From a virus, in the IMG/VR virus record IMGVR_UViG_3300031555_005516: a DNA stretch of 64,000 nt; one strand, written 5' to 3'. The translations under genes were made by a program, and so were the position numbers. The first letter of the stretch is position 1, and every line of letters starts with the position of its first letter. Below the pieces are notes generated by a model. That model was not told the DNA's origin and searched no databases. It saw only the letters and a program-made list of their open reading frames with translations. Of this stretch, positions 233 to 42,443 are shown one piece after another.

Positions 233-901
233 ATGGAAAATAAATATCAAGTAGTCGCGCTCATTGGAAAAGCGGGCGCAGGTAAAGATTCAATTCAAAA
301 GGCAACTTGCGAATTACACCCTCTCATGTTTCACCCTATTGTTAGCTGCACGACACGTCCAGCGCGAGAGGGGGAAGTAGAAGGAGTAGATTACCACTTT
401 ATTTCACTTAATGAGTTTACACGCAAGGTACTTAATGGAGATATGCTTGAAGCAACAGAGTTTAGAGATTGGTTTTATGGAACCACTCTTGATTCTCTTG
501 CAAAAGATAAAATCAATATTGGAGTATTTAATCCTGCAGGGGTTGAAGCTCTACTTGAAGATCCTCGCCTTAATGTTAAAGTATTTGAAATAGTGGCGCC
601 TGATAAGCAGCGATTAATGCGATATCTTAATAGAGAAGAATATCCCGATTGTGCAGAAATGTGCAGGCGCTACTTTACTGATGAAAAAGATTTTGCAGAC
701 CTTGATTTTGATAGATATAATATTGAAAATTATGATGGCACAAGTCTTGACCTTTTAGAAGACTGCAATAGTTGCATTGAAGAATTTGAAACAATGTGGC
801 AGACACTCGATGTAGATACTCAGTTCGAGACCATTAAGCGCTGGGAGAGCTCAATGTCGAAAAAAGCTGAATCAACTGATATTGAGGGCAGTGCTGAATA
901 A
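233..901 (+). CDS. P-loop nucleotide/nucleoside kinase-like protein (dNMP kinase-like)
   Basis: Intact 222-aa ORF with Walker A 'GKAGAGKDS' near the N-terminus. First gene of the nucleotide-metabolism module. TAA stop. Confidence 0.55.
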   Translation: MENKYQVVALIGKAGAGKDSIQKATCELHPLMFHPIVSCTTRPAREGEVEGVDYHFISLNEFTRKVLNGDMLEATEFRDWFYGTTLDSLAKDKINIGVFNPAGVEALLEDPRLNVKVFEIVAPDKQRLMRYLNREEYPDCAEMCRRYFTDEKDFADLDFDRYNIENYDGTSLDLLEDCNSCIEEFETMWQTLDVDTQFETIKRWESSMSKKAESTDIEGSAE

Positions 902-954
902 TTTATTTATAATAATTTTTATATATAAACGCAAAATCAAATGATAAGGAGAAA

Positions 955-1188
955 ATGACAATGAAATTTACTTTCTACTCAAAGCCTGGGTGTCCTCAAT
1001 GCAAAGTTCTTAAAATGAAGATGGACGCAGCAGGAATTCAATATACTCATATTGAGGATATAGATGCTATTATAGCACTTGGATATCAAGGAGCTCCTGT
1101 TTTAGTTACAGAAGTTGGAGCCTTTGTTGGACCAAACGCTATTAAATGGATAAATAACTGGATAAAGGAGCACCCAAATGGACATTAA
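955..1188 (+). CDS. nrdH: NrdH/glutaredoxin-like redoxin
   Basis: 77-aa ORF with a CPQC redox motif in a thioredoxin-fold context ('FYSKPGCPQCKVLK'). RBS 'aaggagaaaATG'. Lies immediately upstream of nrdD. Confidence 0.7.
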   Translation: MTMKFTFYSKPGCPQCKVLKMKMDAAGIQYTHIEDIDAIIALGYQGAPVLVTEVGAFVGPNAIKWINNWIKEHPNGH

Positions 1189-1285
1189 TGTTAGACTAAA
1201 AAAGAATTTTACCACAGCCTATAATAAGCTTTAGGCTGAATATGGAACAGATATTGCTAGACTCAATGGCTTTGACGATAATCAA

Positions 1286-4252
1286 TTGAGCTATGTTGAT
1301 TTTATTGATAATTTTATTGATACCAAAGTAGTTGCGGATGCGAGTATTGATGGCAATAGTAACGTCAGTAAAAAAGATATAGTAACACTTCTTAATGAAA
1401 TGCCAAAACCACATAGAAAATTATTGGCATATAATAAAATTCATTATGAAATGCAAAAAGAGTTTGGATTTAAAACAGCCAATGAATGGTTAAAATCTGA
1501 ATGGGTAGGACAGCTTTACATGCATGATGCTGATACTAGCACTTTTAAACACTACTGTTATAAAGGTGAAGAGCTTGTAACAGTAAGAGATAGAATACAC
1601 CGTGAATATACTTTTGCTTTAAAAGAGTTATATGACAATATTCTTGCAATGGATACCGAAGCAGAAGAGCGTTATGATGTATCTATTGAGCAAAAAGCAT
1701 TATTTCCAAAAAATATTGAGGTACTTGATATTAATGAAGAAACTGGAGAAAAATGTTGGACTAAGGTTACTCGCGCAGTTAAACACACAAATAATAAGTC
1801 TATGCGTTTTATTAAGTTAGCAAATGGTTTATCGCAAATTGTAACTGAAGACCATCCTATTATTACAGATTGTGGCGACATTCCTGCAAAAGATGTAAAT
1901 GATGAATATCGTGTCTTTACCATTCAACCCTCTTGCTCATTCAATTGCGAATTGCCTTTTAAACAAAATCAATTAAAAGATTTAGGATGGGTCACTGGCA
2001 TGGCCTTATCTGAAGGCAATGTTATAAATAATAGACAATTTGTTATAGCACAAAAATTAAATTCTATTCAAGCAGAGAAAATGAGACAAATTTTAAATAC
2101 TCATGAAATTCCTTTTGCAGAAAGTGGAGATAGAAAATTTTATCTGCACAACAGTGAATTCCAAAAATGGTTAATTTCTTTATTCAATAAACAAACTTCT
2201 GTTAATAAATGTTTGCCTTCTTATTTTATGCAATTACCATCAGATTTTATGGATGGGGTTATTGCAGGAATGATTGATGGAGATGGTACTATTGATGGAT
2301 ATAAGAATAGACATTGTCATATCCGTATTGCTTCAGAAGTTCTTTGTCGCCAGTTAAGCATGTATTTGCACTCAAAAGGAATCTTTGTAGGAGATAGAAC
2401 ACCATTTAGATATAATAGAATTGGAAGCTTTGAACAAAAGCTACCAATGTTCGGTATCGGCTTTACTCTTACAAATGAGGAATATTTTTTAAACATTGGA
2501 AGCGTTAAAATTCAAGAAAAATATACGCCTTTAACTCGAAAAGGCAATTTTAAAAATAAACAATATGAATACAACTATGGATGGGTTTCAATTATTGATA
2601 ACTCAGAGTATATTGATGAATGCCCTGAGGTATATGACTTAACAACAGAAACAGGTCATTTTATTTGTAATAATATTCTATCTCATAACTGTTTTGCTTA
2701 TGATCTAAAAGATTTAGCCGAAAAAGGACTTTATTTTATAGGAGCTCCATTTAATCCCGAACCTGCAAAACATTTAACAACTTTTGTAGACTTCGTTAAA
2801 GAATATATTAGTTATGCATCTAATCGTTCATCAGGCGCCGTCGGTTTGCCTAACCTTATTCCTTATATGTGGTATTTTTGGCATAAAGACGTTGAGTCTG
2901 ATTACCTTGGCTTAGCTTCAAGTGGCAATGCTGAAAAATATGCGCGCCAGAACTTTCAGCGTTTTGTCTACGCCGTAAATCAGCCTTATGTTCGTGATGG
3001 TTCGCAAAGCGCTTTTACTAACACAAGTGTATTTGATCGCCCCTATTATGAAGCATTATTTGGCGGTAGCGAATTTCCCGATGGCAGCTTTATGATTGAC
3101 TATGAAGAGGATATTATTGAGTTTCAAAAATGGTACATGGAAGAAGTTGCAGAAATTAGATCTCATAATATGTTTACTTTCCCAGTGCTTTCAATCTCTT
3201 TGCTAAAACAAGATGGAGAGTTCCAAGATGAGGAATTTGCGCGCTGGGCCGTAAAGCATAACATGCGTTGGTCAGATAGTAACTTGTTTATTGATGACTC
3301 TGTGACTTCACTTTCCAACTGTTGCCGTTTAAAGAGCGATATTAAGGATCTGGGTTATTTTAATAGTATCGGAGGTACTGCGCTTAAAGTTGGTTCTGTA
3401 AAAGTATCTACTATTAATCTTGCGCGCCTGGCGCTTGATACGAATAGTGAATTTGAATATCTAATGGAATTAAGAAAGCGCACTTTACTTAATCTTCAGG
3501 CTCTTCATTGTGTTAGAAATATTATTCGTCGTAATGTTGAAAAAGGACTTCTCCCCAATTTCTCTATGGGGCTTGTAGATTTTGAACATCTCTATAACAC
3601 TATTGGCTTTATTGGCGTTTATGAAACAATGAAGCGCTTTGGCTATACTCGCACAGATGATTTTGGAAATGTATACTATACAGAAGAAGCGTCTTCGCTT
3701 GGTCAGAGAATTTTCCAAACGATGCGTGAGGTTGCTGATCAGTTTATTGAAGATATGAGTGCCGACTATCATATTAACACAGAGCAGATCCCTGGAGAGT
3801 CAGCCGCCGCCAAACTAATGCGTAAAGATAAATTCTTCTATCCAGATTCTGATATCTTTGATCTTCCTTTATATGGCAATCAATTTATTCCTCTTGGTAT
3901 TCAAACTACTCTTGCGGAACGTGTTAGAATTGCCGCGGAGTTTGATGGCTACTGCAATGGAGGTTCAATTCTTCACGCCAATATTGATGCTCCATTTGAC
4001 AATTTTGATAAAGCTTGGGAAATGGTTAACTATATTTCTGATGCTGGAGTAACATATTTTGCTTTTAATACTAAAATCCAAGCTTGCGATAATAATCATG
4101 CGTTTTATGGTCACGAATGCCCCGTTTGTGGTCGTCCAGTTGAAACCGAATATACAAGAATTGTAGGCTTTTATACACCGATTAAAACTTGGTCAAAAGA
4201 GCGCACAAATGAATATAAAATGAGAAAATGGGAGCCAGTAAATAAAAAATGA
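1286..4252 (+). CDS. nrdD: Anaerobic (class III) ribonucleoside-triphosphate reductase NrdD, interrupted by an intein
   Basis: 988-aa ORF. The N-terminal 'LYMHDADT' matches the T4/E. coli NrdD 'IHVHDIDY' region. The C-terminal 'CPVCGRPV...TRIVGFYTP' is the zinc-ribbon plus glycyl-radical motif. The two exteins total about 610 aa, normal NrdD length. The stop overlaps the nrdG start (ATGA). Confidence 0.85.
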   Translation: MSYVDFIDNFIDTKVVADASIDGNSNVSKKDIVTLLNEMPKPHRKLLAYNKIHYEMQKEFGFKTANEWLKSEWVGQLYMHDADTSTFKHYCYKGEELVTVRDRIHREYTFALKELYDNILAMDTEAEERYDVSIEQKALFPKNIEVLDINEETGEKCWTKVTRAVKHTNNKSMRFIKLANGLSQIVTEDHPIITDCGDIPAKDVNDEYRVFTIQPSCSFNCELPFKQNQLKDLGWVTGMALSEGNVINNRQFVIAQKLNSIQAEKMRQILNTHEIPFAESGDRKFYLHNSEFQKWLISLFNKQTSVNKCLPSYFMQLPSDFMDGVIAGMIDGDGTIDGYKNRHCHIRIASEVLCRQLSMYLHSKGIFVGDRTPFRYNRIGSFEQKLPMFGIGFTLTNEEYFLNIGSVKIQEKYTPLTRKGNFKNKQYEYNYGWVSIIDNSEYIDECPEVYDLTTETGHFICNNILSHNCFAYDLKDLAEKGLYFIGAPFNPEPAKHLTTFVDFVKEYISYASNRSSGAVGLPNLIPYMWYFWHKDVESDYLGLASSGNAEKYARQNFQRFVYAVNQPYVRDGSQSAFTNTSVFDRPYYEALFGGSEFPDGSFMIDYEEDIIEFQKWYMEEVAEIRSHNMFTFPVLSISLLKQDGEFQDEEFARWAVKHNMRWSDSNLFIDDSVTSLSNCCRLKSDIKDLGYFNSIGGTALKVGSVKVSTINLARLALDTNSEFEYLMELRKRTLLNLQALHCVRNIIRRNVEKGLLPNFSMGLVDFEHLYNTIGFIGVYETMKRFGYTRTDDFGNVYYTEEASSLGQRIFQTMREVADQFIEDMSADYHINTEQIPGESAAAKLMRKDKFFYPDSDIFDLPLYGNQFIPLGIQTTLAERVRIAAEFDGYCNGGSILHANIDAPFDNFDKAWEMVNYISDAGVTYFAFNTKIQACDNNHAFYGHECPVCGRPVETEYTRIVGFYTPIKTWSKERTNEYKMRKWEPVNKK
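1556..2689 (+). mobile_element. Intein (~378 aa) with a LAGLIDADG homing-endonuclease core, inserted in nrdD
   Basis: Begins with Cys ('HY|CYKGEELV') and ends 'ILSHN' followed by a +1 Cys ('CFAYDL'). Two LAGLIDADG-type blocks ('LGWVTGMALSEGNV', 'DGVIAGMIDGDGTIDG'). Inserted directly before the conserved active-site Cys of NrdD (T4 'NCCLVDLKG'). Confidence 0.75.
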
Positions 4253-4731
4253 AAGTCAAAGGAATTATAACAGAAGATTTCGTTAATTATAAAATTCCTT
4301 CTTTAACAATAGAAACTCCTTATTGCAAAGGTTTTAAATGTGATCGAGAATGCGGCATGCCAGTGTGTCAAAATAGTACATTGGCAAATATGCCAACTCT
4401 TGATTATTCAATAGACTCTATTATTGAGCTATATCAAAAGACTCCGTTTACACATGCAATAGTATTTCAAGGATTGGAGCCTTTTGATACCTTTGAAGAC
4501 TTATATGACTTTCTCTTTGTTTTTAGAGAATGTTATTTAATAGAAGATGATGTTGTTATTTACACAGGATATTATGATGATGAGATTGAAGATCAATTAA
4601 ATCAATTAAAACATTTTTCAAATATTATTGTAAAATTTGGACGCTATATTCCAGATATGGAATCTCACTTTGATGATATACTTGGAGTAAAACTTGCTAG
4701 TCCAAATCAATATGCAGAAAGGATTAGCTAA
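4249..4731 (+). CDS. nrdG: Anaerobic RNR activating enzyme NrdG-like (radical SAM)
   Basis: 160 aa, Cys cluster 'CKGFKCDRECGMPVC' near the N-terminus. 'AIVFQGLEPFD...VVIYTGYYDDEIEDQL' parallels E. coli NrdG 'ISLSGGDPL...IWVWTGYKLDEL'. Translationally coupled to nrdD. The Cys spacing is atypical (C-x4-C-x3-C). Confidence 0.6.
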   Translation: MKVKGIITEDFVNYKIPSLTIETPYCKGFKCDRECGMPVCQNSTLANMPTLDYSIDSIIELYQKTPFTHAIVFQGLEPFDTFEDLYDFLFVFRECYLIEDDVVIYTGYYDDEIEDQLNQLKHFSNIIVKFGRYIPDMESHFDDILGVKLASPNQYAERIS

Positions 4732-4925
4732 TGAAAATTCAAAAATATGCAAGCGAAGAACTTGCGCAGGAAATACGCGCATCAATTCGTGCATCTCAAG
4801 GTCATTGCCCTTGTGTATTGGAGCCTTTTAGAAATCAAGATACTTTATGTATGTGTAAAGAATTTCGTGAAGCGCCAAAAGGAACGATATGTAACTGTGG
4901 CTTATATATTAAAGTAGAAGATTGA
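4731..4925 (+). CDS. Small Cys-rich protein resembling the ferredoxin:thioredoxin reductase catalytic subunit (FTR/FDR-like)
   Basis: 64 aa with 'HCPC...(12)...CMC...(11)...CNC' spacing, like FtrC 'CPC...CPC...CHC'. Overlaps the nrdG stop (taATGa). Confidence 0.4.
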   Translation: MKIQKYASEELAQEIRASIRASQGHCPCVLEPFRNQDTLCMCKEFREAPKGTICNCGLYIKVED

Positions 4926-4983
4926 ATTTTATAAAAAATTAAGTTATAATTATTTTATAAAGTGATAAGGAGAAGAAAAGTTA

Positions 4984-5415
4984 ATGAAAGCCAATTATGA
5001 AGATAAAATTCCAAAGAAAACTTCTGAAGTTGCTCTTGGAAATCTCTATGATATGAATAAGCAACTTATGGAAAAAGAAATTGCTTTAACAGATAATGAA
5101 ATTATGAATACTGAAACCGCTCTTAAAAACTGGCTCATAGAATTATTTGCACAAAAATATTTTATGCTACTCTGTCACGAGCGCAGAGATTATACTCTAT
5201 TTAATCTTGATAAAACCAATTCTTGGAAAATACCACAAGATAAAATGGTAATGGACGCAGCCTTTGATATTATAGAATGTTTAACAAACCGCGGAACTTT
5301 ACTTTCAGCCGAATTACAGCCAGACGGAGTATGGGAGTTTTGGATTAAAGATCTTGTTGAAGGATGTTTTGCTTATTACCTTTTCCCATATGGTGAAGCA
5401 GTGCTTGAGTATTGA
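4984..5415 (+). CDS. Hypothetical protein
   Basis: Intact 143-aa ORF, RBS 'aaggagaag' upstream, TGA stop. No recognisable motif. Confidence 0.4.
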   Translation: MKANYEDKIPKKTSEVALGNLYDMNKQLMEKEIALTDNEIMNTETALKNWLIELFAQKYFMLLCHERRDYTLFNLDKTNSWKIPQDKMVMDAAFDIIECLTNRGTLLSAELQPDGVWEFWIKDLVEGCFAYYLFPYGEAVLEY

Positions 5416-5425
5416 GGAGGATAAT

Positions 5426-5686
5426 ATGAATAAACTTATAATTCGTGGAGAGCCTGTTGGACCCTTTCAATATGTTTACGCTTATGTAGATGGGAAGAAA
5501 GTAGAGTCAATAGGAATACAAATAGAAAATTTAGAAGATGTCGTTTTTGCATTGCTAAAAAATTATAATATTAATCATATTGATTTATCAGGTTCTCGCC
5601 TTTATATGGAAGGAATAGAGCATATGTTAAAAAACGCACAGATAAATGATTATGAAAAAACGGAACTTATTTTTAAATATGTTTAA
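5426..5686 (+). CDS. Hypothetical protein
   Basis: The track ORF 5354..5686 has an internal ATG at 5426 preceded by 'gaggagga'. Likely true start 'MNKLIIRGEPVG'. TAA stop. Confidence 0.4.
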   Translation: MNKLIIRGEPVGPFQYVYAYVDGKKVESIGIQIENLEDVVFALLKNYNINHIDLSGSRLYMEGIEHMLKNAQINDYEKTELIFKYV

Positions 5687-5697
5687 GGAGAAGGTGT

Positions 5698-5949
5698 ATG
5701 GGAAAATATCTAATAAAAACAACAGAAGAACATCGTGCAGATACTGAGCATGAAGCGGCAGAGCTTATCAATGCAGCAAAAGCAGATGGACGCTATATTC
5801 TTGTAAAATATTCCTCTGTAAAAAAAGAAAGAAAGCAAAAAGGTGAAATAGTAGACGAATATTATATAGTCACCTTGGTGAAAGGATTTGATGATCCTAA
5901 GCAACCCTGTGGTGAAGCCTCAGTAGAATATAAGATAGGAGCGTTTTAA
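5698..5949 (+). CDS. Hypothetical protein
   Basis: 83-aa ORF, RBS 'aaggagaagg'. Charged, no motif recognised. Confidence 0.4.
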   Translation: MGKYLIKTTEEHRADTEHEAAELINAAKADGRYILVKYSSVKKERKQKGEIVDEYYIVTLVKGFDDPKQPCGEASVEYKIGAF

Positions 5950-5951
5950 TT

Positions 5952-6437
5952 ATGAATATAAAAAATGGATATATAGTTACTCCGAAGCCCGCTAATGAAA
6001 TCGATTTTGTAAAGCTTACATCTACTGCACAGGCGCCGGTGAGAGGAAGTGAACAGGCAGCTGGTTGGGATCTTCATGCTGACCTAGAAGGATTAGATAA
6101 GATTGTAATTCCACCTCACACCTATAAAAAAATTTCTACAGGCATTGCTATTGCGCTGCCTCGGGGCACCTTTGGCGCAATCTATCCACGAAGCGGAATG
6201 GCAACAAAAAGAGGTCTTGTATTAGCAAACACTGTTGGCATCATTGATGCAGACTATAGAGGCGCCGTCATAGTGGCTCTTAAAAATGATTCTGATGAAA
6301 TGCAAGTAATAGAACATGGTGAACGTATTGCGCAACTAATTGTTCAACCTTTCTTACGTGTTGAATTTAACGAAGTAAAATCAATTGGAACTACTGCTCG
6401 AGCAGATGGTGGCTTTGGGTCAAGTGGAAATAAATAA
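5952..6437 (+). CDS. dut: dUTP diphosphatase (dUTPase)
   Basis: All five dUTPase motifs are visible: 'AAGWDL', 'PRSGMA', 'GIIDADYRG', 'GERIAQL', 'RADGGFGSSG'. Confidence 0.9.
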   Translation: MNIKNGYIVTPKPANEIDFVKLTSTAQAPVRGSEQAAGWDLHADLEGLDKIVIPPHTYKKISTGIAIALPRGTFGAIYPRSGMATKRGLVLANTVGIIDADYRGAVIVALKNDSDEMQVIEHGERIAQLIVQPFLRVEFNEVKSIGTTARADGGFGSSGNK

Positions 6438-6442
6438 TTTAA

Positions 6443-6477
6443 AGAGCGAGATTAAATCTCGCTCTTTTTGATTTTTT
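6443..6477 (+). terminator. Rho-independent terminator after dut
   Basis: Hairpin 'agagcgagat-taa-atctcgctct' followed by a T-run. Confidence 0.6.
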
Positions 6478-7371: not shown

Positions 7372-8108
7372 TATTTTACTTTAGATGCTAACATAGAGAT
7401 CTTCTATTGAAGAAGTTGTTTCTCTTCTGGAGATGCATCTTGAATCATTTCAGTCATATCATTTGCAAGCTCTTGCATATAAGATTCAAGTTCCTGCATT
7501 TGTTTGGACTTGTCATGATGTCCTTTTCCTTCCATATACATCTTGCGGCGCTCACCGCTTCTTCCTTCTTTAGGGTCGCGCATCATTGCATGTCTTGGGT
7601 CCTGCATCATACCGTCTCTATAAATATAGGGCATAGGTTCATGATACATAGAATATGAAGAAGCTCCTCCATCATTATACATAGAGTAGGATGTTTGTCC
7701 GTCATCATAGCGTCTGATCATTCCATCCATATATCCTCTAGTGCCGCCTCCGCGAGCATTGTTTCCACCAGAAGAACGACCGCCGTTACCACCATTTGAT
7801 GAAGAGCCTCTGCCACCACTATTGCCGCCTTGCGCATACATAGTGCCAGGATAATATCTCTCATCATAACGAGGATCATACATTTCTGCTGGGTATGGAG
7901 AATAATACATAGGCATACTGCCTTTTTCTTCATTAGCTTGCTTTTCCATTGATTCTGTTATAGTGCAATAGTAAACAGCTTCAGAAAGGTCTTTAATCAT
8001 ATCCATTACTTCGCCAAGCTCTTCAGCATTGACTTTTTCAAGGTTTCCATAAACTTGTCCTTCAGCAACGCCAATAAGACATTCTTTCATTTTCTTTAAA
8101 TTTTCCAT
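7371..8108 (-). CDS. Low-complexity Gly/Asn/Met/Tyr-rich hypothetical protein
   Basis: The 234-aa track ORF 7404..8108 ends on TAG. Read-through adds 10 codons to a TAA at 7371-7373, overlapping the next start (TAATG). The middle is low-complexity 'GGNSGGRGSSSNGGNGGRSSGGNN'. Confidence 0.4.
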
Positions 8109-21733: not shown

Positions 21734-21842
21734 AATAATTTTCTCCTTTTCGTAATTAAAATTTTTTAATTTATGGTTATCAGGCGCCCAGGGTTGCCCA
21801 AAGGCGCCTGTTATTGTTTATATTAGGTGTTTACAATCAAGC

Positions 21843-24728
21843 TGTTGCGCCTGCTGCATTACCACCATTAAGGACGAGTTCAGCCTCGCCGTTAACAAGA
21901 ATATCAGTACTAATTGCCTTAACATCTGCCTTACCGTCGTTAGCTACATAAACCGTATTAACAACTGCTACGCCATCAACATCAGCCGCAGACTTGATAC
22001 CACCAAGTGCTTCAGCTGTTGCTACGGGAAGAGTGTACTCAGCAGCTCTAATGGCATCGAGTACGGTAGCAGGCTAATCTTCTCCGCCGATACCAACGAG
22101 CTTATCCTCATTAGCCTTAATACGGTTATCCATATTAACTGCATCTGTGCTATGAGTGCCGAGCCATTCCGCCATTTCAAGTAGAGTATCGAATGCTTCA
22201 GGTGCTGTTGCAAGTTGAGAAGCAATCTCTTCTTGAGCAATTGTTCTTACTGATTTTGCTTGATCGGCGCCAACAAGCGTAGTAATATTTGCACTATTTT
22301 GTTTAATATCGTCAATAGCAGTTGCAAGAAGACCTTCATCTTGAGTTCCAAGCTCTTCATTTCCAGCCTTATAGATATGATCTATTGCTAATTGAAGCTT
22401 ATTTTCTTCTCCCTTAGCACGGTTTTCTTCAGCTGTAATTAAACCTCTAACTGCAGTATCATCATACGCGTCAGCTTTTGCAAGGAACTTATCATCTGCG
22501 TCAGTCTTGCTATATACATTTGCCGCAAGTGCAAGAGGAACAAGTTTAGCATCAACTTCACCCTTTGTATAAACATTATCTGCAAGAGCTCTCTTACCAA
22601 TGTCCTCACTATTTTGATTTACCTTACCAGAAAGAAGATTAAATTCTGCAGTATGAGCTTGATCGTGTGCCTCAAGGGCGCCAATCTTTCCTGCGAGAGT
22701 GGTATCTTTTCCGTCTCCAATTGCACCGACAAGTGCCTGAAGATTTTCAATATTGGACTTATTTGTTGCAACCTGACCTTCAGCAAGTTGAGTTACTGCT
22801 TGGTTAGCAGCTTGCGCATTATTAAGCGCTGTATCAGCCTGAGCGCGCGCCTGATCTACTTCAAGGAAGAGTCCTGTTGCAGGAGTTTCACCATTTACAT
22901 CATGACCAACCTGGTTTTCAATATTCGAAACGCGTTCATTATTAGATGTCTTATATTCATCCAATTGTCTCTTAACAGATGCGGCAGTTTCAGAAGATCC
23001 TCCGCTTACTGCATCAAGCAATGCATTAACTTCTGCTTTAGAGTACGCAGAAGCAAAGATACCTGTACCATCTACAGCTTCTTGAGTAGTATTGCCTTCA
23101 CCATCTTTAAGCTCAGGAACTCCAGGAGTACCGATCTTATTATCAATTTCAGTTTTAGTATAAGCATCTGTTATACCATAACCAGCCAGAGTAGTCGCTT
23201 TCTTGGCATAGTCTCTTTCAACATTTGTTGCTAAAGTTTCAACGGCTCCTTCTGCATCTTCGATAGCTTTTGCAATAGTACGAGTATCATTGTTTTCGTC
23301 AACTGTAATATCCGTTCCGTAAAGAATTACTCCATTAGTCTAATCTTCACTCCAAATGGAGCCGATACCAAGATTATCGTTAAATGTTTTTCCATTAATA
23401 GTAGAATTTTTTAATGCAACAATCGCATCTTTTATAGTTCCATTAGACTCAGTCTCAACAATAATATCTTCAGCAGTTTTGCTATTTGCCGTATTGGCAG
23501 TCTCAGAAAGAGAATTAAGAGCTTGTGTAAGTGTCTAGCCTTCAAATGCATTTGGAGTTTCAGCATTTTCTGAAACGTTAATATCATCAGATTCAAGTGT
23601 AATATCACTTTCAAGCGCCTTACCATTAATCTTAGTAGTCTTAGTAACATATCCGCTTAAATCTGTAGTTGTGTCGCCAGTTTGAACAAGCTCTCCGCCA
23701 ATAACCATGTATTCCTTATACATGTCGCCAGTAGCAGATTCAACCTTAAGCATATAGATAATATGCTCAATAGGGTCAGTTGTCTCTCCATCAATTACTA
23801 CCTTGCCATCTTCAGTAACAGAATCAATAATAATCTTTGTTAATTTACCGACTTCTGCATTTGCAATTTGCTCAGCAACATAAACACTAACTTTCTTATC
23901 GCCAGTATCTACTTTTCCTTCAAGTGCGCCAACGCGTCCTGCAAGCGCCTCATCATTATAAGCATCAGGAACTACAATTGCAACATCAACATTGGTACCG
24001 TCTTTTGTTAAGTGATAAGTAGTTTCAGTCGCGCCTTCAGCTCTTTCATCTGCTTTTACAGCATACTCAGGGACATCAGGAATAATAACCTCTGCATAAA
24101 GTCCGTCTTCTTTTTCCTTAAGGATATTGCCTTCTTCGGCAGAAAGGTTAAGAGAAATTTCATATTTATGACCTTCAAAATCTTCCTCTGCCTTATCTTC
24201 AACGTTAATGCAAGGGCAACCAGCAGCAACCTCAGTTACGCTATTACCATCACCTTCAACGATCGCGGAAACAGGCGCCCATTCAATTTCAAGATGAAAT
24301 ACCTCTTCAACATCCTCAGCCGCAGCTACATCTACAACTTTCTTTACACGAGGAAGGTATCCAACGTGAGAAGCGGTTAAATCGCCAAAACCATGAAGAG
24401 AAATTTCTCCACCCTCAGCAACATCAATAGATTTACCATCGCCAGTAGGAATAATTCCAACGGGTTGAATAGCAAGATTTTGGTCTAAGTAATAAATAGT
24501 AGTAGCGTCTGCTCCTACAACTGCGCAAATCTGACCAGGATAAGCAACAGGATTATCGGTTACATATTCAAGTAATGAACCAGCGTAATCTGCTCCGCCT
24601 ACTGTTCCGTAAGCCTTGAATACCGAATTCGCATCAAGAGGAAGCGGATTACCTCTCTTTATCGAGACGGCTACGTCCCATAAAGAAGCCTTAGCTTGAG
24701 CCGCAAAAAAATCATCTCTAATCGACAT
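21843..24728 (-). CDS. Large tail-fibre-like protein (~960 aa), TAG-recoded
   Basis: Track fragments 23535..24728 and 22074..23021 share a frame, and both end on TAG. The Ala/Asp/Gly-rich sequence continues across the TAGs. The end near 21843 is estimated. Confidence 0.35.
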
Positions 24729-24741
24729 TATTTATTCCTCC

Positions 24742-27935: not shown

Positions 27936-30900
27936 TTAATTAGAATTGATAATAATTTTTTCAAGTGCAGCAATACGTTCTTCCAATTTGCTGTTTTGAG
28001 TTTCTAATTCAGAAACCTATTTCTTAAGTTTCTAAATTTCATAGGTATTAAGTGCAATGAATTCAGTATACACTAAACCATTTATATCGTTTGAACATTG
28101 CACAATAGCAAAGTCCTATGAATTTAAGTTAGCTTTTGAGAAAGCCTATTGTGTTTTCTATACTGTAAAACCAAAATGAGTCTACTATGATTCATCTTTA
28201 TTATATTTATAACTAACTGGCTGTAGCTAATCAAATAAAATAGAATATTTTTCTAAATTAGCAGAAATAGAATTTTTATATTTTTCATCAGAACTTGTTA
28301 CAGCATATTCTTCTAATAATAGATATTTTAAAAATGCAGTTCCGTCGTTTAAAATATAATATCCTTTTGATTGATCGCTTGGCGCCGGTCCAAGCCCAAA
28401 TGCATCAATAGAGCTAGACTAATTTGCATAAGTTTGATTATATACATCTTTAGTCTAAAAACCCTATCCAGTAAAATACCATCCTCCAACAATGCCTTTA
28501 TCTGTTGTGTCAACTGCAAAAGAGGCAGTCATACCAGAGGATCCACTTCCAACTGAAATTCCGTTAGTTCCAAAATATGCGCCCTCTGCTTGAGTATCCC
28601 ATACACTGGTGCGTTCTCCTGAATATAAATAGGTCTCTGCAACTTTAAAACCACCTATTTTTACTTCTGGATCAATCGCTGTTTTATCTGCATTAGCATA
28701 GAATTTATCTCCAATCTTTATTGCTCCTGCACTAATCAGGTCTGCATTAAGAATTCCAGTTTTAATCATACTTGCATTAATAAAAAGCTCAACAGAATCT
28801 GCATTATAAAGAATACCTATTCCTCCAATATCATTTGGAATGGTAGAGAATTTATTAGACCCGTCAAAATCTTCAAAAATAGGACGAGGGTATACTTGAA
28901 CATATCGATACTTTGATCCATTCATATCTTCAATATCATAATCTCCCCCATCTGTTACAAGATTTTTAGCTAAATAAATGATACCAGTATTTTCTCCATT
29001 ATTGGTCAAAGTATTAAAAGCCTTATAAGTAGTTAGTTCTGATCCATTAAAAATACTTCTTAATGTTTTTGATAAAATTATTAAATTTCCATAAGAAGTA
29101 TCTAATTTTTTAAAATTAAATATTACTGTATCTGTTAATCCTAGTTCTACAGAAAATTCTTCATTTCCTGTAAAAATAACTTCTTCTTCATTATTTTTTA
29201 GGTAAGATAACTAATACCCACTTGGTAATGAATCGGGAGTAGTGTAAACCTGCTATATGTTTTCATCATCTTTAAAACTTATAGATATGGTTTCTAAAAA
29301 GATATCAGTTGCTTTTGAATTTGTTGTATCAATAATACCATTAGGGTGTTCATTAAAAAGTATCTAATACTAAAAATCTTTCTACGCTACTCTTAAAGTA
29401 AACATTCCTCTTACTGGATTTCCAGTTTCAGGGGTATATATTATATTAAACAACTATTCCGCACCGTTATATTTTGGAAAATCTAACAATGTGAAAATTA
29501 CTTGATCATTGCCCAGCTTTTTATATTCATAAGCCCAGGTATCATTAGATTTGGGAGAAATTGACAACCTTTCAATATCTATTATTTGCTTTTCTTCATT
29601 GATATAATAATTAAAATAATTAACAAAACTATTAATAGGATTAAAGCTTTCATCAATCATTATTGTTTCATTAGAAGAGCTTAGTTCTAAATAAGGAATA
29701 GAATTTTCCCCTTTTGTATTATAATAGATATAAATCCACTAAATATTCTCTCCAATTTGTTTTCCATCAAGATAAATCATAAAATTTAATTTAATCTTAT
29801 AAATGGTATATTCTAACTCTAGCCCTAATCCCCAAGGATTCTCTATTTGATAATAGGCTCCTTCTTGCTTTGTTAGGATATTCTAAATAAAGGTCTCATC
29901 CTTTACTTCCTCTCCATCTTTTGTAATATAACCTTCTTGAAAAAACTAAAATTCATAGCCAACATTTGTTAAAATTGTGCCTGTCCTATCTACTACTGTT
30001 GCAAGACCTTGCTAAACAGCAATCTCTAAAGGAACTGATTTTTTTTCTGCATTCTAAAAAGAGTAGTTTTCACTATAAATATTAATTCGAAGACCATTAT
30101 CGATAACCAAACAATTAATACTAGAGTCCAAGATTATTTCTGGGACAGATCCTTCGTTTGCTACAATTGTGTTATCATATATCTCAATTTGCAAATAATA
30201 TTTACCTGACTCGCCTGGGTTAGAAATCATTGCTGTCAACTTTTCTTCTTCTGGCGCTGATTTCTAAAATACTAAATTCTAAATTAAAGCATTGTCAGGT
30301 TTATTTAAACTTTCTTTTTGATATTTGTTTGATACTACTGCGACATAGCGCTTAGAAGAATCGTTTGTTATAGGCTTAGTGTCATAGCATTCAATTTTTT
30401 CTTTCCCTTGGTATACTTCAATATCTGCAACTTCTATTGCAGTATTATTAATTTTATCAAAAATAATATTCGGATTAGAAATAATAACATTAAAACCAGC
30501 TTCTCCATCTTCAATTCGAGTAAGTGTAACAACATCAACCGCTTCTTTGGAGGTTAATTCTGCAGTGCAGCGAATTTCAGAATATAATGATGAAATATGC
30601 TCTAATGTTAAAATTTTAGAATCTGGATTTAAAACTATTCCAAAACCCAAATCATTTACAGATGTCCAAATGCTATCCTTAAGAACTTCCGCTTTAATTT
30701 CCCATTCAGAAGTTTCATATCCGCTTATTTCTATTGAAAAAGCAATATATTCTGGAGAAGATTTTTTATAAATTAAAGCATCCGTTTTTAATCGAAAGCT
30801 TTTAGCGGCTTTACCGGGCTCTCCTGGCGCGCCGGGCGCTCCTGGAAGACCATCTACTGAATAGTTACCATCTAAAACGAAATTACTCCAATCTTTAGTA

Positions 30901-32885
30901 TTTTCGTTATAGTGTAGCTTACCAAGCTAGTTATAAGGACATTCAGTTCTATATCTATTTTTATATTCATTATCAATTTCTAAAGCCTCTGTCGTCCATA
31001 CGTCATATTCTTTATCAGGCTTCCCAAAATAAACCTTGCTATTTTCAACTCCTACATAAGGATAATTATTACCAATCCAATAGAAGGTTAATGAAGGAAT
31101 TCCAGTATAGTCAGCGGTTCCTAGTTTTGCTAATACCATCCTTGTTTCAGTATTTGTTTTTTCATAACAGAGATATGGATAATCAGTATTTATATCCGAT
31201 TCTAAAGTTGCTTCTTTTTTCTTATCAATATCAATCAACCCATCTTTCTCTCCATAGAGAATATACTAGTATCCATCATCCTATTCTGAAATTAACATAT
31301 CATTATATTCAATAAAACCATTAGTATAATATACTCTCCAAATACGATAAAGATCTTGTTGTTTAGTCTCTATATAAGCAATATTTCTTTCTTTACACGA
31401 ACTTATTACTATTGTATTTTTACCTTCTTCTATATTTTTAGTAACTCGCTTCCAAAGTATTGGTTTATCAATATTACTTATTTCTCCTATACGAGGTGCC
31501 CAAGGTCCATCAAAAGGTGCATGATCTTCATTATCGCTAAAAGCGAATTCCACAGTCTATTCAGGCAAGTATAATAAATCATCATTATTAATAACTATAG
31601 AAGCATATCCAATATACTTGTCACCATCTCTGTAATGGCATTTCCAAAGATTATAATTACTATCTAAGAACACTGATATCTATTGTTCAGTAGAATAGGA
31701 TGTGTCTTTTTGACCATAAACATCTATGTGTTCCCATTTATATTGACACTCTTTTTCATTTTCATTCATTGCAATAAGAACTTTTTCATAAGAGTCTACT
31801 GTTTGCTATGAGATATATAAACCAGAATAAGAAGGGGTTAAATTCTTTAAAATAGTATTAGCTTCAAAAATCATTTCTCCATAAGTAATTTCTACCTTAT
31901 ATTTCATTGGAGAATAATATATATCTTCTGAAGTAAGCTATACAATAGGTCTCTACCAGCGCGCCGTTTCCAATTTTTTCCAGCCGCTCTCTTCCCAAGG
32001 ATCCTCAATATACCACTAAAAACCACATAAATCAGGATCTATAAAAGTGGCGCCCTACATCATTCTTGCCTCAATCGTAATCTGCTCTACTTTATCGTGA
32101 AGAGTATCTCCTTCATATCCATGGATAACCGCCTACATACGATTGGCACTTTCGTTTTCTTTTATAATATTAAAGGTTATATTTTTAATTTTTAATACTT
32201 CTGAATTAGATAATTCATTTATTTTTTCCAAATAAATAGATTCAATAGTATCAAATTCATAATCTTTAAAATAACTTTGATAAGATTTAAAATCAAAGCT
32301 ATTTTGAGTAATTTCTATTTTTACAGCAGATTTAACAAGCTATCCTTTGTAACTTAATTCAAAAACTAAATCTATACTTCCAGAACTTAGTTCAGCTAAA
32401 ACTTCTGCGCCAATAGAAAACATCATAGACTCTTTAAGATGCTTTTCTAATAAAGTCTCATTCACTTTCAAAAGGTTATTAGACTCGCCTTTTTCATAAA
32501 GTATTGTTTTAGAATCAGAAAGAGTATATTCAACAATATCATCCTCTTCATTATCCTCTACAATAGAAGAGCCTAAAGAGGTATATAAAGAGCTCTCTTT
32601 TAAAGTGGTTAAATCACTAACTGAGGTGCGCCCAACAATCACTTTAAGTGACTCATCTTCAACATTGGTGGTAAGTATCTTAACTTTCTCATCTTTACCA
32701 TATTCTCCAGTCGGCGCCTAAGCTTCAAATATAGTATCTTGATAGTTTATCTTATAAATACGCTATTCTGGGTCAATGCATCCAATGACAGTTCCTATTA
32801 TGGTGCGCGTATAGTCCGTTTGGCGCAATTTACTATCAATTTGAATATCAACCGCTGAAAATAAATTTTCAACTATATTACTCAT
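27936..32885 (-). CDS. Giant tail/host-interaction protein (~1649 aa), heavily TAG-recoded
   Basis: ATG at 32883-32885 with RBS 'aaaaggagagataatATG'. Eight track fragments (32340..32642 down to 28464..29009) all lie in one frame. I translated 32643-32885 and 27936-28464 and found only TAG interruptions. Contains a collagen-like 'DGLPGAPGAPGEPGKA' and ends in a coiled coil '...KQVSELETQNSKLEERIAALEKIIINSN', then TAA near 27936. Confidence 0.5.
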
Positions 32886-32907
32886 ATTATCTCTCCTTTT
32901 CTCTCTT

Positions 32908-32939: not shown

Positions 32940-35900
32940 TTAAAATTTATCATCCTAATGCACATACTAAGTAGCTAGATTAATAAGGTCATTAAACGCC
33001 TCTTTAATCTCATCTTTGTCTGTCGCATTCGGGAACTCTGCTTGAATTGTAACATTTTGCTCAATTGGTTGAGAAGCTAATTGCTATAAGATAGAATTTT
33101 GTGAATTGCTAAATGGCATTCCAAAGCGGCCGATTTGCGCCATCATTGAAAGGTTAAGCTCACGAAGAATTGAAAGTGCGTCTAAGAAATTCTCAGTATC
33201 TTTTTTATTAAGAACCAATTCCTTTTCATGAAGCATTGCCATACGACCATCTGTGCCCCATTCACCAGTGTATCCACCAGTATCATATTTTTCTAGACCA
33301 TCAAATAATCCAGAATTTAATACTGCCCAATGGCCGTTCTCTGAATTCTTATTCTCATTTTTTAAAAATTCAATTGGAAGATAAAAAATTTCTCCATCTT
33401 TATCTCGCACTTGCACATATCCCCAACCTTCTGCATCTGTCCATATATCTGAACTTATAACCGTATATTTAGTGTTCTTCATATCTTTACCAGTATGATC
33501 AGAAACAGTAATAATATCTAATTCACCAGAACTATTATAGGTATGAATATTTCCTGTTCTCCAGCTTGCTACTCTATTTCCCTCTTCATCGAATCGGCTT
33601 CTTTCTGAATACAAATAAACTTCTTGATTAAATAAACTAGCAACCTCACTACTTGTTTTATTAGTTTTTCGTAGTCCACCAGTTCTAGTATTGTCAGGAC
33701 CAGGTCCAGAAATCTCTTCTTCCTCTTCTTTATTGCTTAATTTTCTTGCGTTTGCAATTGCAATATACATATCCCTAACTCGCTCAAGAGAAGCTTTAAG
33801 GATATCATATTGTCCAGCAAGAATAGATACCTCTGAATATTCAGTCTAATATTGTTTAATAACCGCATCCTATTTTTCTGATAATGTCTAATAAGAGCCG
33901 ATTAATCCAGAACTTGGATCAGCAGAACCAATTACAGTGGCCAATTCTTCTGCTCCAGTTTTCTATTTATCTAAATATTTATTAGAAATAGTAAGCATTG
34001 TATCCATTAAACTTTGATAACTATTATCAATACCATTTTTTGCTACCTCATTAATAATAGCATCGATATCTTTAGTCATCTAAAGAACAGTTCCTTGGGT
34101 CAGCTCAGAAAGATCTTTACCAAAAGTTGAAGCCGCTAACTCAGCAGATTCAAAAACATTGGTTCTAATTCTTATGCTTCTCTCTGCTAAATTCTAAATT
34201 TCTTTTTTACGCTTCTCAATCAATGCTAATTCTTCTGTGGTGTAAATACCATCTTCTCCGAATTTGCGAATTACATCCGCTAAATCCTACATTGCGCCCT
34301 AAAATTCATCAATAGAAGAAGTGTATTCATCTAGTTCCATATTATATAAAGCATCTTGAGCTTCTGTTAGTTTATTCTAAGCTTCAACAATTGCCGCCTA
34401 ATCAGCAACATATTGATAACTATAAGAGCCATCTGCGCCCCTCATTAAGCGCATTTGAGTTTTATTCTCTTGAGCTTCACGAAGCGCAATTTCGGCCTAA
34501 AGGATATCAAGCTTCTTTTGTGCATGTTGCACATCATACTCACTTAATTTCTCAATTTCTTCAAGTTGCGCCAATTCTTCTCTCTTAAGTTTATTAATCT
34601 GCTCTTGTGCACGAAGTGAAGTAGCTTCATTAGCCGCAGTATCAAATTGAACAGCAAGTTTATCTTTTTCGAACAAGCTCTATACAGAATCATAGTATTT
34701 ATCCATTTGAGATTTAGTCCAATCCCATTCACTGGTAAATAGCTCTGTATCTAAACTACCATAAACACTCTTATTAAAATTCTTTATAGCAATCTCTGTA
34801 TCATTCAGATATTTATCACGGCGCGCTTCCATTACCGAATACATCGCTTCTGCGCTTGCCTGTCCTGCTGCAGTATATTCTTCAATAATAGCTTCGCGTT
34901 CTTCGTCACTCATTGTAGTATCGTTAATTCTGCTATAGTTTGAAGCAGCTGCTGCAAATCTCTATTGAGTGCTTTCTTGAATAGCTAATGCATTATCAAG
35001 AGAAGAACTATAATAAGAATTTAACATCTCATACGCATCTTCGCCATAAATAAGCTCTATCATGCTTCTTTGAGTATCTAAAAGACCATTAATTTCTTCA
35101 AGATAAGAAATTTGTTTTTCATATCCCTCAGAAATTTTATTTAAAGCTGCAAGTCTCTATTGATCAATAGATTCTTCAATCTACTAAATCTCTTTTAACT
35201 TTTCTCCGTATTGAGAAGTTAATTCTTTTCTTTTCTCAAGCTTTGCTTCTGCAGAAATGTTTAAACTATCAATTTCTTTAAGAGCATCTTCAATAGTTGT
35301 AAGATCACTAATTGCGGTTTGATAATCTGTAATATAAGATTTAGTTATTTCTGAAAAATCTTCTTCATCAATAAATACTTCTCGTTTTAGTGCCTCAAAC
35401 TCTCTTTTTAATTCACCTTCATCTAAAGTAAATTCAATTTTATGTTCAAAACTAACAAGATTATTAGCTAACTCTTGAGCTTTCTTTTCATCTATAGCAT
35501 ACTTTGTTTTTCCAGAAGTAACTGGCTCCAAAATAGTTTCTAGATTACCAATCGCTGCAAGGTATAACTTATTAAGATTTTCATCAGCAGCTATTCCACG
35601 CTGAGCAAACATTTCTCTTATATTTAAAAGAGAATTCTAAGCACCTTCTTGAGTTGTTACATCTGTAATACCGAGTGCGTTCCAAAGCTCAGCTTCACTC
35701 ATAATATCAGCATTTGCATAGCCTGCTAATCGAGCAAGATCTTTTAACGCAGCCTCATAAGTAGTGTTGTTTTCTCCAGGGGTAAACGTTCTTTGCCTAT
35801 TGAGTTCTAGCTACTCAATCTTAGCTTGACGTTCAAGAAGCTTTATCTATTGTTGAATAACCTTATTCTATTCCTCAATATAATCTAGTCTATCTTGTCC

Positions 35901-41900: not shown

Positions 41901-42443
41901 TTTATCGGTTACTATCATTATATTATTTAATGATTCATCAAGCTACTTTGTATAGCTCCAAGCTTTTTGAACAGAACCTGTTACAGTATTAATTGCATTT
42001 GATGCAATACTCCATTTTACAGTGTTCATTAAGGTGGTGCCCATTGCCTTAAGTAAATCATGAGATTCTCTTAAAGGTAATTTCGTTGAAGAAATTGCAG
42101 TAGCTAAATTTCTAAACGCTATTGTACCTTCAGCGCCAGCCTCTGCCATTTTTGCTTTTACCTAAGATAAAGTTCCTACATTTTCATTTAATTTCTTTTT
42201 AAAAGTATCAATATTATAGGTGTTTAATGCAGGGTTAAAACTTTGCTAAAGAGCAGCTTCTACTTGGCCAGCCATTTCTTTAATTTCACGTAATTTAGCC
42301 TATGCTTTCCCTTTAGAATCTACATTTACTAAATCTCTAGTTTGCATATTCTATAAACTTGCTAAAGAAGCCTTAAGCTAATTTAAACCAGACTAATCTA
42401 CATTAAAACCAATGCCAAAAGTAATTCTTCCCTAATTAGCCAT
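32940..42443 (-). CDS. Tail tape measure protein (~3167 aa), heavily TAG-recoded
   Basis: ATG at 42441-42443 with RBS 'caaggaggaatatttaaATG'. Fourteen track fragments from 41943..42149 down to 33084..33770 share a frame. I translated 33771-34200 and 32940-33084: 9 in-frame TAGs, no TAA/TGA, continuous sense. The TP901-type TMP core is recognisable ('MGVDIDQLNAMLATAVSVTRQAPESVGTAFKTVFARIGD', 'INVLDTNGKLRDQGDVIEEIGNKWNQMSREQQIALSQTMAGTRQYNNLLALF'), as are Gly-zipper TM segments and long coiled coils. TAA at 32940-32942. Confidence 0.75.

Follow-up and report, generated by a model that had tools for sequence, protein, structure and literature searches.

How does a phage that carries its own class III, anaerobic ribonucleotide reductase (RNR) supply that enzyme with electrons? 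The question is raised by a 64,000-nucleotide stretch of viral DNA (IMG/VR record IMGVR_UViG_3300031555_005516; hereafter the window, meaning the whole stretch that was analysed). Here the genes for the reductase, nrdD, and its activase, nrdG, are flanked by a gene for a small NrdH-like redoxin and a gene for a 64-residue protein with the cysteine spacing of the catalytic subunit of ferredoxin:thioredoxin reductase (FTR), which we call mini-FTR. We consider it reasonably probable that the module is an electron chain running from host reduced ferredoxin to mini-FTR, to the CPQC redoxin and on to NrdD, in a TAG-recoded phage of about 136 kb that infects gut Clostridia.

An original prediction, made from the letters of the window, had named four open reading frames (ORFs) as the module. 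All four were found on the + strand, at 955-1188 (77 aa), 1286-4252 (988 aa from a TTG), 4249-4731 (160 aa) and 4731-4925 (64 aa), although the second begins further upstream, as discussed below. The parts of the module are as follows.

955..1188, + strand: NrdH-like glutaredoxin-fold redoxin, 77 aa, with C13-P-Q-C16 (Pfam Glutaredoxin, TIGR02194, phrog_22).
1178..4252, + strand: nrdD precursor, 1024 codons, 646 aa when spliced, NrdDh/NrdD2-like (Pfam NRDD, alignment with NrdD of Thermotoga maritima).
1232..1234, + strand: in-frame TAG, nrdD codon 19, read as Gln (Gln in relatives).
1556..2689, + strand: 378-aa intein that contains a LAGLIDADG homing-endonuclease domain (splice motifs, junction compared with relatives).
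4249..4731, + strand: nrdG-like radical-SAM (S-adenosylmethionine) activase, 160 aa (C26-x4-C31-x8-C40-Q-N; weak NrdG and Fer4_12 matches).
4731..4925, + strand: mini-FTR, 64 aa, homologue of the FTR catalytic subunit and of ferredoxin:disulfide reductase (FDR) (CPC-x11-CMC-x11-CNC).

The redoxin gene (grx) overlaps nrdD by 11 nt, nrdD overlaps nrdG by 4 nt and nrdG overlaps the mini-FTR gene (ftr) by 1 nt. The four genes form a translationally coupled operon.

The identity of mini-FTR is central to the question. Its six cysteines are arranged as C26-P-C28, C40-M-C42 and C54-N-C56. A search of 5.8 billion proteins gave 125 homologues, nearly all of 60-66 aa. In the 30 of these that were aligned, C26, P27, C28, C40, C42, C54, C56 and the G-L-Y that follows are invariant, and the consensus is GYCPCVL...DTKCMCKEFRE...CHCGLYIK. 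The family profile matches 1388 cluster representatives (50% clustering, E<=1e-3). Judged from these alignments, the cysteine pattern is not the product of chance. PF02943 (FeThRed_B; gathering score 22 bits) is matched by 24 of the 30 aligned members. Seven relatives were scanned singly and all seven scored above 22 bits, including one that is 66% identical to the window protein. This relative, P0064, scored 26.3 bits, P0116 scored 48, P0098 scored 28.5, CST077 of phage c-st scored 23.0 and gp5 of phage crAss001 scored 23.6, and the relatives cover approximately positions 18-89 of the 106 in the model. The matches to FeThRed_B set the 64-aa protein apart from other zinc-ribbon families, and the FTR-like protein of the original prediction has held up in its relatives.

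Structures point the same way. At E<0.01 the family profile found only 4tpu and 7pwe in the PDB, both of them iron-sulfur disulfide reductases, with the CPC, CMC and C(H/N)C of the mini-FTRs in register with their CPC, CPC and CYC. An AlphaFold2 model of mini-FTR (mean predicted local distance difference test score 96.2) has the predicted fold of an FTR catalytic subunit. The PF02943 matches of the relatives, the PDB matches of the profile and the model together argue that mini-FTR is a truncated domain of the FTR catalytic type, and it is predicted to hold a [4Fe-4S] cluster next to a redox-active disulfide. Compared with FTR (1DJ7) and the FDRs (4TPU, 7PWE), it is about half as long and lacks a variable subunit, a rubredoxin domain and a glutaredoxin domain; the middle pair is CMC where FTR and the FDRs have CPC, and the last pair in the window protein is CNC. 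No match to a variable-chain FTR family was found among the eight neighbouring proteins scanned; enzymes of the FDR type have no variable subunit. One of the two structures, 7pwe, is a natural fusion of a glutaredoxin to an FDR, which directly ties a glutaredoxin-fold partner to an FTR-type domain.

The NrdD that would receive these electrons appears to be of the thiol type. Its ORF scores 290 bits with Pfam NRDD. The 610 residues of the spliced, TTG-started protein align unbroken and end to end with NrdD of T. maritima (4COI, 4U3E; subclass NrdDh1) at E 1.6e-144 and approximately 50% identity. The motifs are Y126-C127, C337-C338 (NCCR), I353 (NSIGG), E491 and G619. Y126-C127 (HYC) corresponds to Y124-C125 of the T. 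maritima enzyme, NCCR to S328-C329-C330-R331, the finger-loop NSIGG with I353 to S358-I-G-G (Ile359) and the glycyl-radical motif RIVG619 to RIVG621, and the Cys and His residues of the Zn site are kept. N-T-E491-Q-I-P-G-E matches N-I-E495-Q-V-P-A-E; E495 may be the glutamate that defines NrdD2, for which PMC4493059 gives no residue number.

Could this NrdD instead use formate, like the T4 and E. coli (Escherichia coli) enzymes, leaving the two small redox genes as unrelated passengers? Phage T4 also has redoxin genes near nrdDG. Even so, we find this highly improbable. The similarity to the formate-type enzyme 8p23 is remote (E 7e-7, C-terminus alone), the double Cys is a feature of NrdDh alone, and formate did not sustain the homologous enzyme of T. 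maritima (PMC4493059). No formate-type signature is present; the YC, the double-Cys xCCR and the SIGG are all kept in the alignment with T. maritima NrdD. According to PMC4493059, no subclass other than NrdDh has SCCR (MCCR in NrdDh4), and neither of its cysteines can be spared; all of NrdDh shares Tyr124, and Ile359 is a mark of NrdDh1. The first residue of NCCR, Asn, is a variant outside the SCCR and MCCR of that study. In the scheme of Wei, as given in PMC4493059, NrdD2 has a third Cys together with a Glu, and NrdD3 has the Cys without the Glu.

The window enzyme has NrdD homology with the glycyl motif, an xCCR, a Tyr before the Cys and a hydrophobic finger-loop tip, and its sequence makes it an NrdDh of the thiol type that fits NrdD2. 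It lies near NrdDh1 but not inside it, because a 14-residue insert present in T. maritima NrdD is missing and Phe stands where Tyr227 is read from the alignment. It also differs in having NCCR for SCCR, an intein and an in-frame TAG. The original prediction had called for a thioredoxin-type class III RNR, with Methanosarcina barkeri as its example. The thiol type stands; the subtype is NrdD2/NrdDh and not the NrdD3 of M. barkeri. The natural reductant of such enzymes is of particular interest, as neither formate nor E. coli thioredoxin gave activity with T. maritima NrdD, which needed a protein of >10 kDa from extracts, and NrdD of Neisseria bacilliformis (NbNrdD, NrdDh3) uses thioredoxin (PMC4493059).

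The redoxin has a glutaredoxin fold, a C-x-x-C (CPQC) and its closest similarity to NrdH sequences, as had been predicted. It scores 25 bits with Pfam Glutaredoxin, above the cut-off of 22.9, and matches phrog_22 ('thioredoxin domain') at E 9e-13. Its top four PDB matches are the NrdH-redoxins 4fiw, 1r7h, 4hs1 and 4f2i (E 3e-7 to 2.5e-5), ahead of glutaredoxins. WSGFRP is the C-terminal motif of NrdH proteins; it is not present in this redoxin, which reads ...VGAFVGPNAIKW....

The linkage of these genes is conserved across divergent phages. The viral counts given here come from the best 80 of 387 viral contigs that encode a mini-FTR relative, with neighbours found by tblastn. The nrdG gene is directly 5' of mini-FTR in 79 of the 80 loci, nrdD is present in 76, and a redoxin gene lies 5' of nrdD in 71. 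The module genes always share one strand and one order, and where a gene is missing the contig has mostly come to its end. This order persists while NrdD identity falls from 90% to 22% and the identities of the module proteins drop to 22-50%. Even the most divergent linked NrdDs are of the xCCR type (NCCR, SCCR, MCCR or QCCR) and none is of the GCR type, such that in this sample mini-FTR goes exclusively with xCCR NrdDs. In a neighbour-joining tree of 118 distinct sequences, mini-FTRs linked to nrdDG and other mini-FTRs fall into two nearly pure clades.

Bacteria supply the other clade. Among the best 80 of at least 591 stretches of species genomes that encode mini-FTR relatives, about 27 have the phage-type module, and NrdD is lacking from the remaining 53. 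For 23 of the latter, the gene directly 3' encodes a WCGPC thioredoxin (PF00085, 100-119 bits); examples are found in loci L153 (8001-8601), L117 (8001-8530) and L137 (8001-8496). This thioredoxin-paired sister clade (62-66 aa) occurs in Clostridia, Oscillospiraceae, Treponema, Bacilli and Coriobacteriaceae (L111-L162). To judge by the gene pairs, mini-FTR and thioredoxin could together make up a thioredoxin system of two genes that depends on ferredoxin and has so far escaped notice.

A more distant version of the module occurs in Clostridium botulinum phage c-st. Genes CST074-CST078 (AP008983) encode a glutaredoxin, an NrdG, an intein-bearing NrdD, a 63-aa FTR-like protein that is 44% identical to mini-FTR, and a dUTPase. 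In c-st, however, nrdG precedes nrdD and ftr follows nrdD, and the intein is elsewhere, around the SCCR region. The c-st NrdG, with its C-x6-C-x2-C, is of another lineage or one too remote to be linked by sequence, and no homology between it and the window NrdG was detectable (E 9.9).

This arrangement bears on what mini-FTR does for NrdG. The window NrdG is a radical-SAM protein that resembles an activase and whose cluster loop is unusual. It has a radical-SAM partial-barrel fold and lies next to nrdD, in agreement with the original prediction, but the family models match it weakly. Fer4_12 just passes (22.5 bits against a cut-off of 22), TIGR02491, the NrdG family model, gives 20.4 bits (E 4e-4) against a cut-off of 126, and phrog_626 matches at E 8e-5. 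The invariant cysteines are C26, C31 and C40, in the pattern C-x4-C-x8/10-C-Q-N (window 4324-4371; relatives down to 42% identity). The canonical C-x3-C-x2-C is absent, and C35, which would make a C-x3-C, is unconserved. A GGE-like GLEP segment and an IYTGY segment are kept across relatives.

Such an atypical cluster motif might require a dedicated partner, and in this phage family mini-FTR follows nrdG directly, with a 1-nt overlap. Mini-FTR might then stand in for host flavodoxin as a small ferredoxin-like carrier that supplies the [4Fe-4S] cluster of NrdG with electrons for SAM cleavage, and be no disulfide reductase at all. We would be surprised if this were so. The c-st ftr follows nrdD and not nrdG, in a phage whose NrdG has no detectable similarity to the window NrdG, which weakens the idea of an NrdG donor. 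A plain cluster needs four cysteines, whereas mini-FTR has six that are invariant, two of them aligned with the FTR redox disulfide. The cellular clade, moreover, pairs with thioredoxin and not with radical-SAM genes.

We return to the electron chain. NrdG, as a radical-SAM enzyme, would install the glycyl radical on G619 of NrdD. NrdD would then reduce nucleoside triphosphates using the active-site pair C127 and C337, not formate. The 77-aa CPQC redoxin would re-reduce the resulting disulfide of NrdD, and mini-FTR, with its predicted [4Fe-4S] cluster and C28/C56 disulfide, would re-reduce the redoxin. Mini-FTR may in turn take single electrons from host reduced ferredoxin (or flavodoxin). What the analysis establishes is the homology and fold of the four proteins, the active-site signature of NrdD and the linkage of the genes. 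Cluster binding, ferredoxin as the donor, and the direction, order and partners of thiol-disulfide exchange are what we infer from the parts.

We pair the redoxin with mini-FTR because of the glutaredoxin-FDR fusion in 7pwe, the thioredoxin-linked sister clade and a precedent from M. barkeri. In that archaeon the class III RNR, NrdD3, is reportedly fed by a ferredoxin disulfide reductase and NrdH, according to work by Wei and colleagues from 2015. Table 1 of PMC9176816 is a further basis for this combination of NrdD3, FDR and NrdH. The phage operon follows the same four-part logic: a glycyl-radical reductase, its activase, a small NrdH-like redoxin and an FTR-type [4Fe-4S] disulfide reductase. 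In contrast to the archaeal system, the phage has an NrdDh/NrdD2-like enzyme in place of NrdD3, and its FTR partner is a free-standing core domain just 64 aa long, with no extra domain and with CNC for CHC or CYC.

Several observations weigh against this chain. The window mini-FTR itself has no Pfam match at E<=1 and none in NCBIfam; it matches phrog_38239, which has no assigned function, at E 1e-13. The PF02943 check proposed in the original prediction thus succeeded with the relatives and failed with the window protein, so that the FTR link is transitive, through the relatives and the profile, and structural, through the model. At 64 aa, mini-FTR is without about 40% of the Pfam model, and ferredoxin docking is thereby in doubt. 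Its last pair is CNC, compared to CHC in most relatives, and Asn replaces the catalytic His, the equivalent of His86 of Synechocystis FTR. The redoxin falls far under the cut-off of TIGR02194, the NrdH model (37 bits against 85.75; E 2.9e-9). NrdH proteins elsewhere are reduced by NADPH-thioredoxin reductase, and a host enzyme could therefore serve in place of mini-FTR. The crAss001 mini-FTR, gp5 (65 aa; L002 2271-2468), sits within an array of tRNA genes and a long way from any RNR gene, which indicates that the family is not bound to RNR alone. Neither the scanned neighbours nor the approximately 6 kb upstream showed a gene for ferredoxin or flavodoxin.

The His to Asn change in C-x-C, the extreme truncation and the missing Pfam match all favor a view in which host NADPH-thioredoxin reductase recycles the redoxin, as with E. 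coli NrdH, and the 64-aa protein is a structural or regulatory Zn/Fe factor that has lost FTR chemistry. This seems distinctly unlikely to us, as the six cysteines and the GLY(I/K) after the last pair are strictly conserved across 1388 clusters. The Asn is limited to the immediate subclade of the window mini-FTR, and the solved FDRs 4tpu and 7pwe likewise lack the His and have Tyr there.

The crAss001 gene raises another possibility. Being alone among tRNA genes, and described in 2018 as an auxiliary metabolic gene for a 'putative ferredoxin-thioredoxin reductase' (PMC6235969), gp5 would suit a general redox auxiliary, as would the sister clade, which in bacteria is paired with ordinary thioredoxins. 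Mini-FTR would then use ferredoxin to reduce host thioredoxin, other disulfides or NrdD directly. The NrdH-like redoxin would not be a dedicated substrate, and the linkage to nrdDG would reflect shared expression timing. We judge this unlikely, though worth keeping in mind. The mini-FTRs linked to nrdDG form their own clade, grx is kept in 71 of the 80 viral loci despite deep divergence, and the glutaredoxin-FDR fusion 7pwe exists.

A dedicated chain would still lean on the host. The original prediction had called a phage with this module self-sufficient for anaerobic synthesis of deoxynucleoside triphosphates (dNTPs). With no ferredoxin or flavodoxin gene seen nearby, and with TAG suppression and intein splicing both needed to make NrdD, this is too strong; host ferredoxin and SAM are also required.

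Part of this was already known. The mini-FTR family is within the reach of Pfam, and the annotations of c-st (2005) and crAss001 (2018) already list members as putative FTR. The 2005 annotation of c-st had flagged a weak similarity of CST077 to the FTR catalytic chain (AP008983). The crAss001 gp5 belongs to the same family but is just 33% identical to the window protein. A literature search for phage FTR-like genes linked to RNR turned up only the crAss001 annotation and cyanophage papers. No paper was found on the mini form or on its tie to phage class III RNR, in a search that most subscription journals lay outside. Among 50,697 phage records, megablast found none that matched the module. 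A wider proposal, on which we are nearly evenly divided, is that mini-FTRs of 60-66 residues are a free-standing, minimal family of [4Fe-4S] ferredoxin:disulfide reductases, the smallest such enzymes, with one branch acting as thioredoxin reductase in many gut Clostridia, Treponema and relatives and another captured by phages as a dedicated electron source for NrdDh.

The nrdD gene itself is easily misread. A start at TTG 1286 was rejected, because the conserved N-terminus runs further upstream, through a TAG. In frame from ATG 1178, the region 5' of the TTG reads MDINVRLKKNFTTAYNKL-TAG-AEYGTDIARLNGFDDNQ, with AAAGGAG about 9 nt upstream of the ATG. From this start, 1178-4252 gives 646 aa after splicing, compared to 651 aa in T. 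maritima NrdD. Where the window has YNKL*AEYGTD, relatives L008, L010 and L031 have YNKLQAEFGTD, which indicates that the TAG at 1232-1234 stands for Gln; relative L003 has TAG at the same position.

The rest of the window agrees with recoding. When TAG is read as sense, minus-strand ORFs of at least 250 aa rise from 5308 to 14215 aa. Recoding of TGA or TAA was rejected, as ORFs lengthen only with TAG as sense. On the minus strand (window 6800-58000), opening TAG joins broken late-gene ORFs into long ones, such as those at 32940-42443 (3167 aa, tape-measure-like), 27936-32906 (1656 aa) and 21837-24731 (964 aa). None of the + strand genes in 233-6437 ends in TAG, and only nrdD has an internal one. 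No tRNA genes were found in the window, and hence no suppressor tRNA. The major capsid protein shares 45% identity with its counterpart in phage phAss-1, which represents a group of 136-kb gut phages with TAG as Gln, suppressor tRNAs and predicted Clostridia hosts (PMC10607447). From these comparisons, the phage recodes TAG as Gln and is related to the phAss-1 group.

The intein comprises residues 91-468 of the TTG-started ORF, and its removal leaves the 610 residues aligned above. It starts with Cys and ends with His-Asn, followed by a +1 Cys (CYKGEE..., TEDHP, ALSEGN, GMIDGDG, ...SHN|C). It thus has Cys1, a block B TxxH, the His-Asn end, the +1 Cys and two LAGLIDADG motifs, although all matches to the intein models (Pfam Intein_splicing, LAGLIDADG_3 and TIGR01445) are under cut-off. 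The intein is inserted precisely after the Tyr (T. maritima Y124) and before the active-site Cys (C125), which is conserved. The spliced junction, HDADTSTFKHYCFAYDLKDL, is identical to that of the intein-less relatives L003, L007, L008 and L010 and continuous with T. maritima NrdD. Just 3 of the 80 related loci have the intein (L004-L006, 79% identical), which makes it a mobile element. For annotation, the consequence is that the standard code mis-calls nrdD, with its true start upstream of a TAG that is read as Gln and an intein in the active-site position.

Other insertions are found in related nrdD genes. They are approximately 0.2-1.3 kb long and occupy at least five other positions (L011, L015, L032, L083, L086, L091, L094, L096, L106 and c-st, L001 3993-6929), near extein residues 139, 192-200, 313-316 (the xCCR region, where c-st also has its insertion), 458-472 and 583.

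Downstream of mini-FTR, the + strand unit is completed by two further features.

5952..6437, + strand: dUTPase, conserved downstream companion (Pfam dUTPase, 103 bits; downstream in 72 of the 80 viral loci and in c-st).
6441..6467, both strands: bidirectional terminator-like hairpin closing the + strand unit (12-bp stem, T run on both strands).

The dUTPase gene (dut) lies about 1 kb downstream in those 72 viral loci. No strong terminator was seen on the + strand before 6441, the first strong hairpin coming after dut. A promoter scan was uninformative (34 sites, 33.9 expected). Replication genes and a guanylate-kinase-like gene lie 5' of the module. This kinase gene and the three ORFs between ftr and dut were rejected as core parts, being kept in just 8-15 of the 80 loci. 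None passed the gathering cut-off of a Pfam family; the ORFs of 143 aa and 83 aa were scanned in full, and the ORF covering the 86-aa gene was scanned against PHROGs only.

Approximately 6 kb upstream of the window start in the same phage (L163 728-5816), the gene for DNA polymerase III alpha appears to be divided into two ORFs, of 839 aa and 433 aa, with a GIY-YIG endonuclease gene between them. This suggests an intron or mobile insertion. Beyond the hairpin, on the minus strand (window 7404-8108), is a gene for a 234-aa protein with a long low-complexity centre rich in Gly, Ser, Asn and Arg and with many Met and Tyr.

What reduces NrdDh enzymes, which are common in anaerobes and their phages, is a question to which this module gives a concrete and testable answer. 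If the wider proposal of a minimal FTR family with a phage branch dedicated to NrdDh is correct, ferredoxin, and not NADPH or formate, would be the physiological reductant of the large NrdDh subclass. The four-gene module, kept in scores of the related phage contigs that were examined, offers two small candidate partners that can be directly expressed and assayed. The 7-kDa mini-FTR found beside thioredoxin genes in Clostridia and spirochaetes is likewise a candidate for an unrecognised thioredoxin reductase. For the phage, the module would couple dNTP synthesis to the ferredoxin pool of the host, and would thus be the kind of auxiliary metabolic module that fits a fermentative host in the gut.

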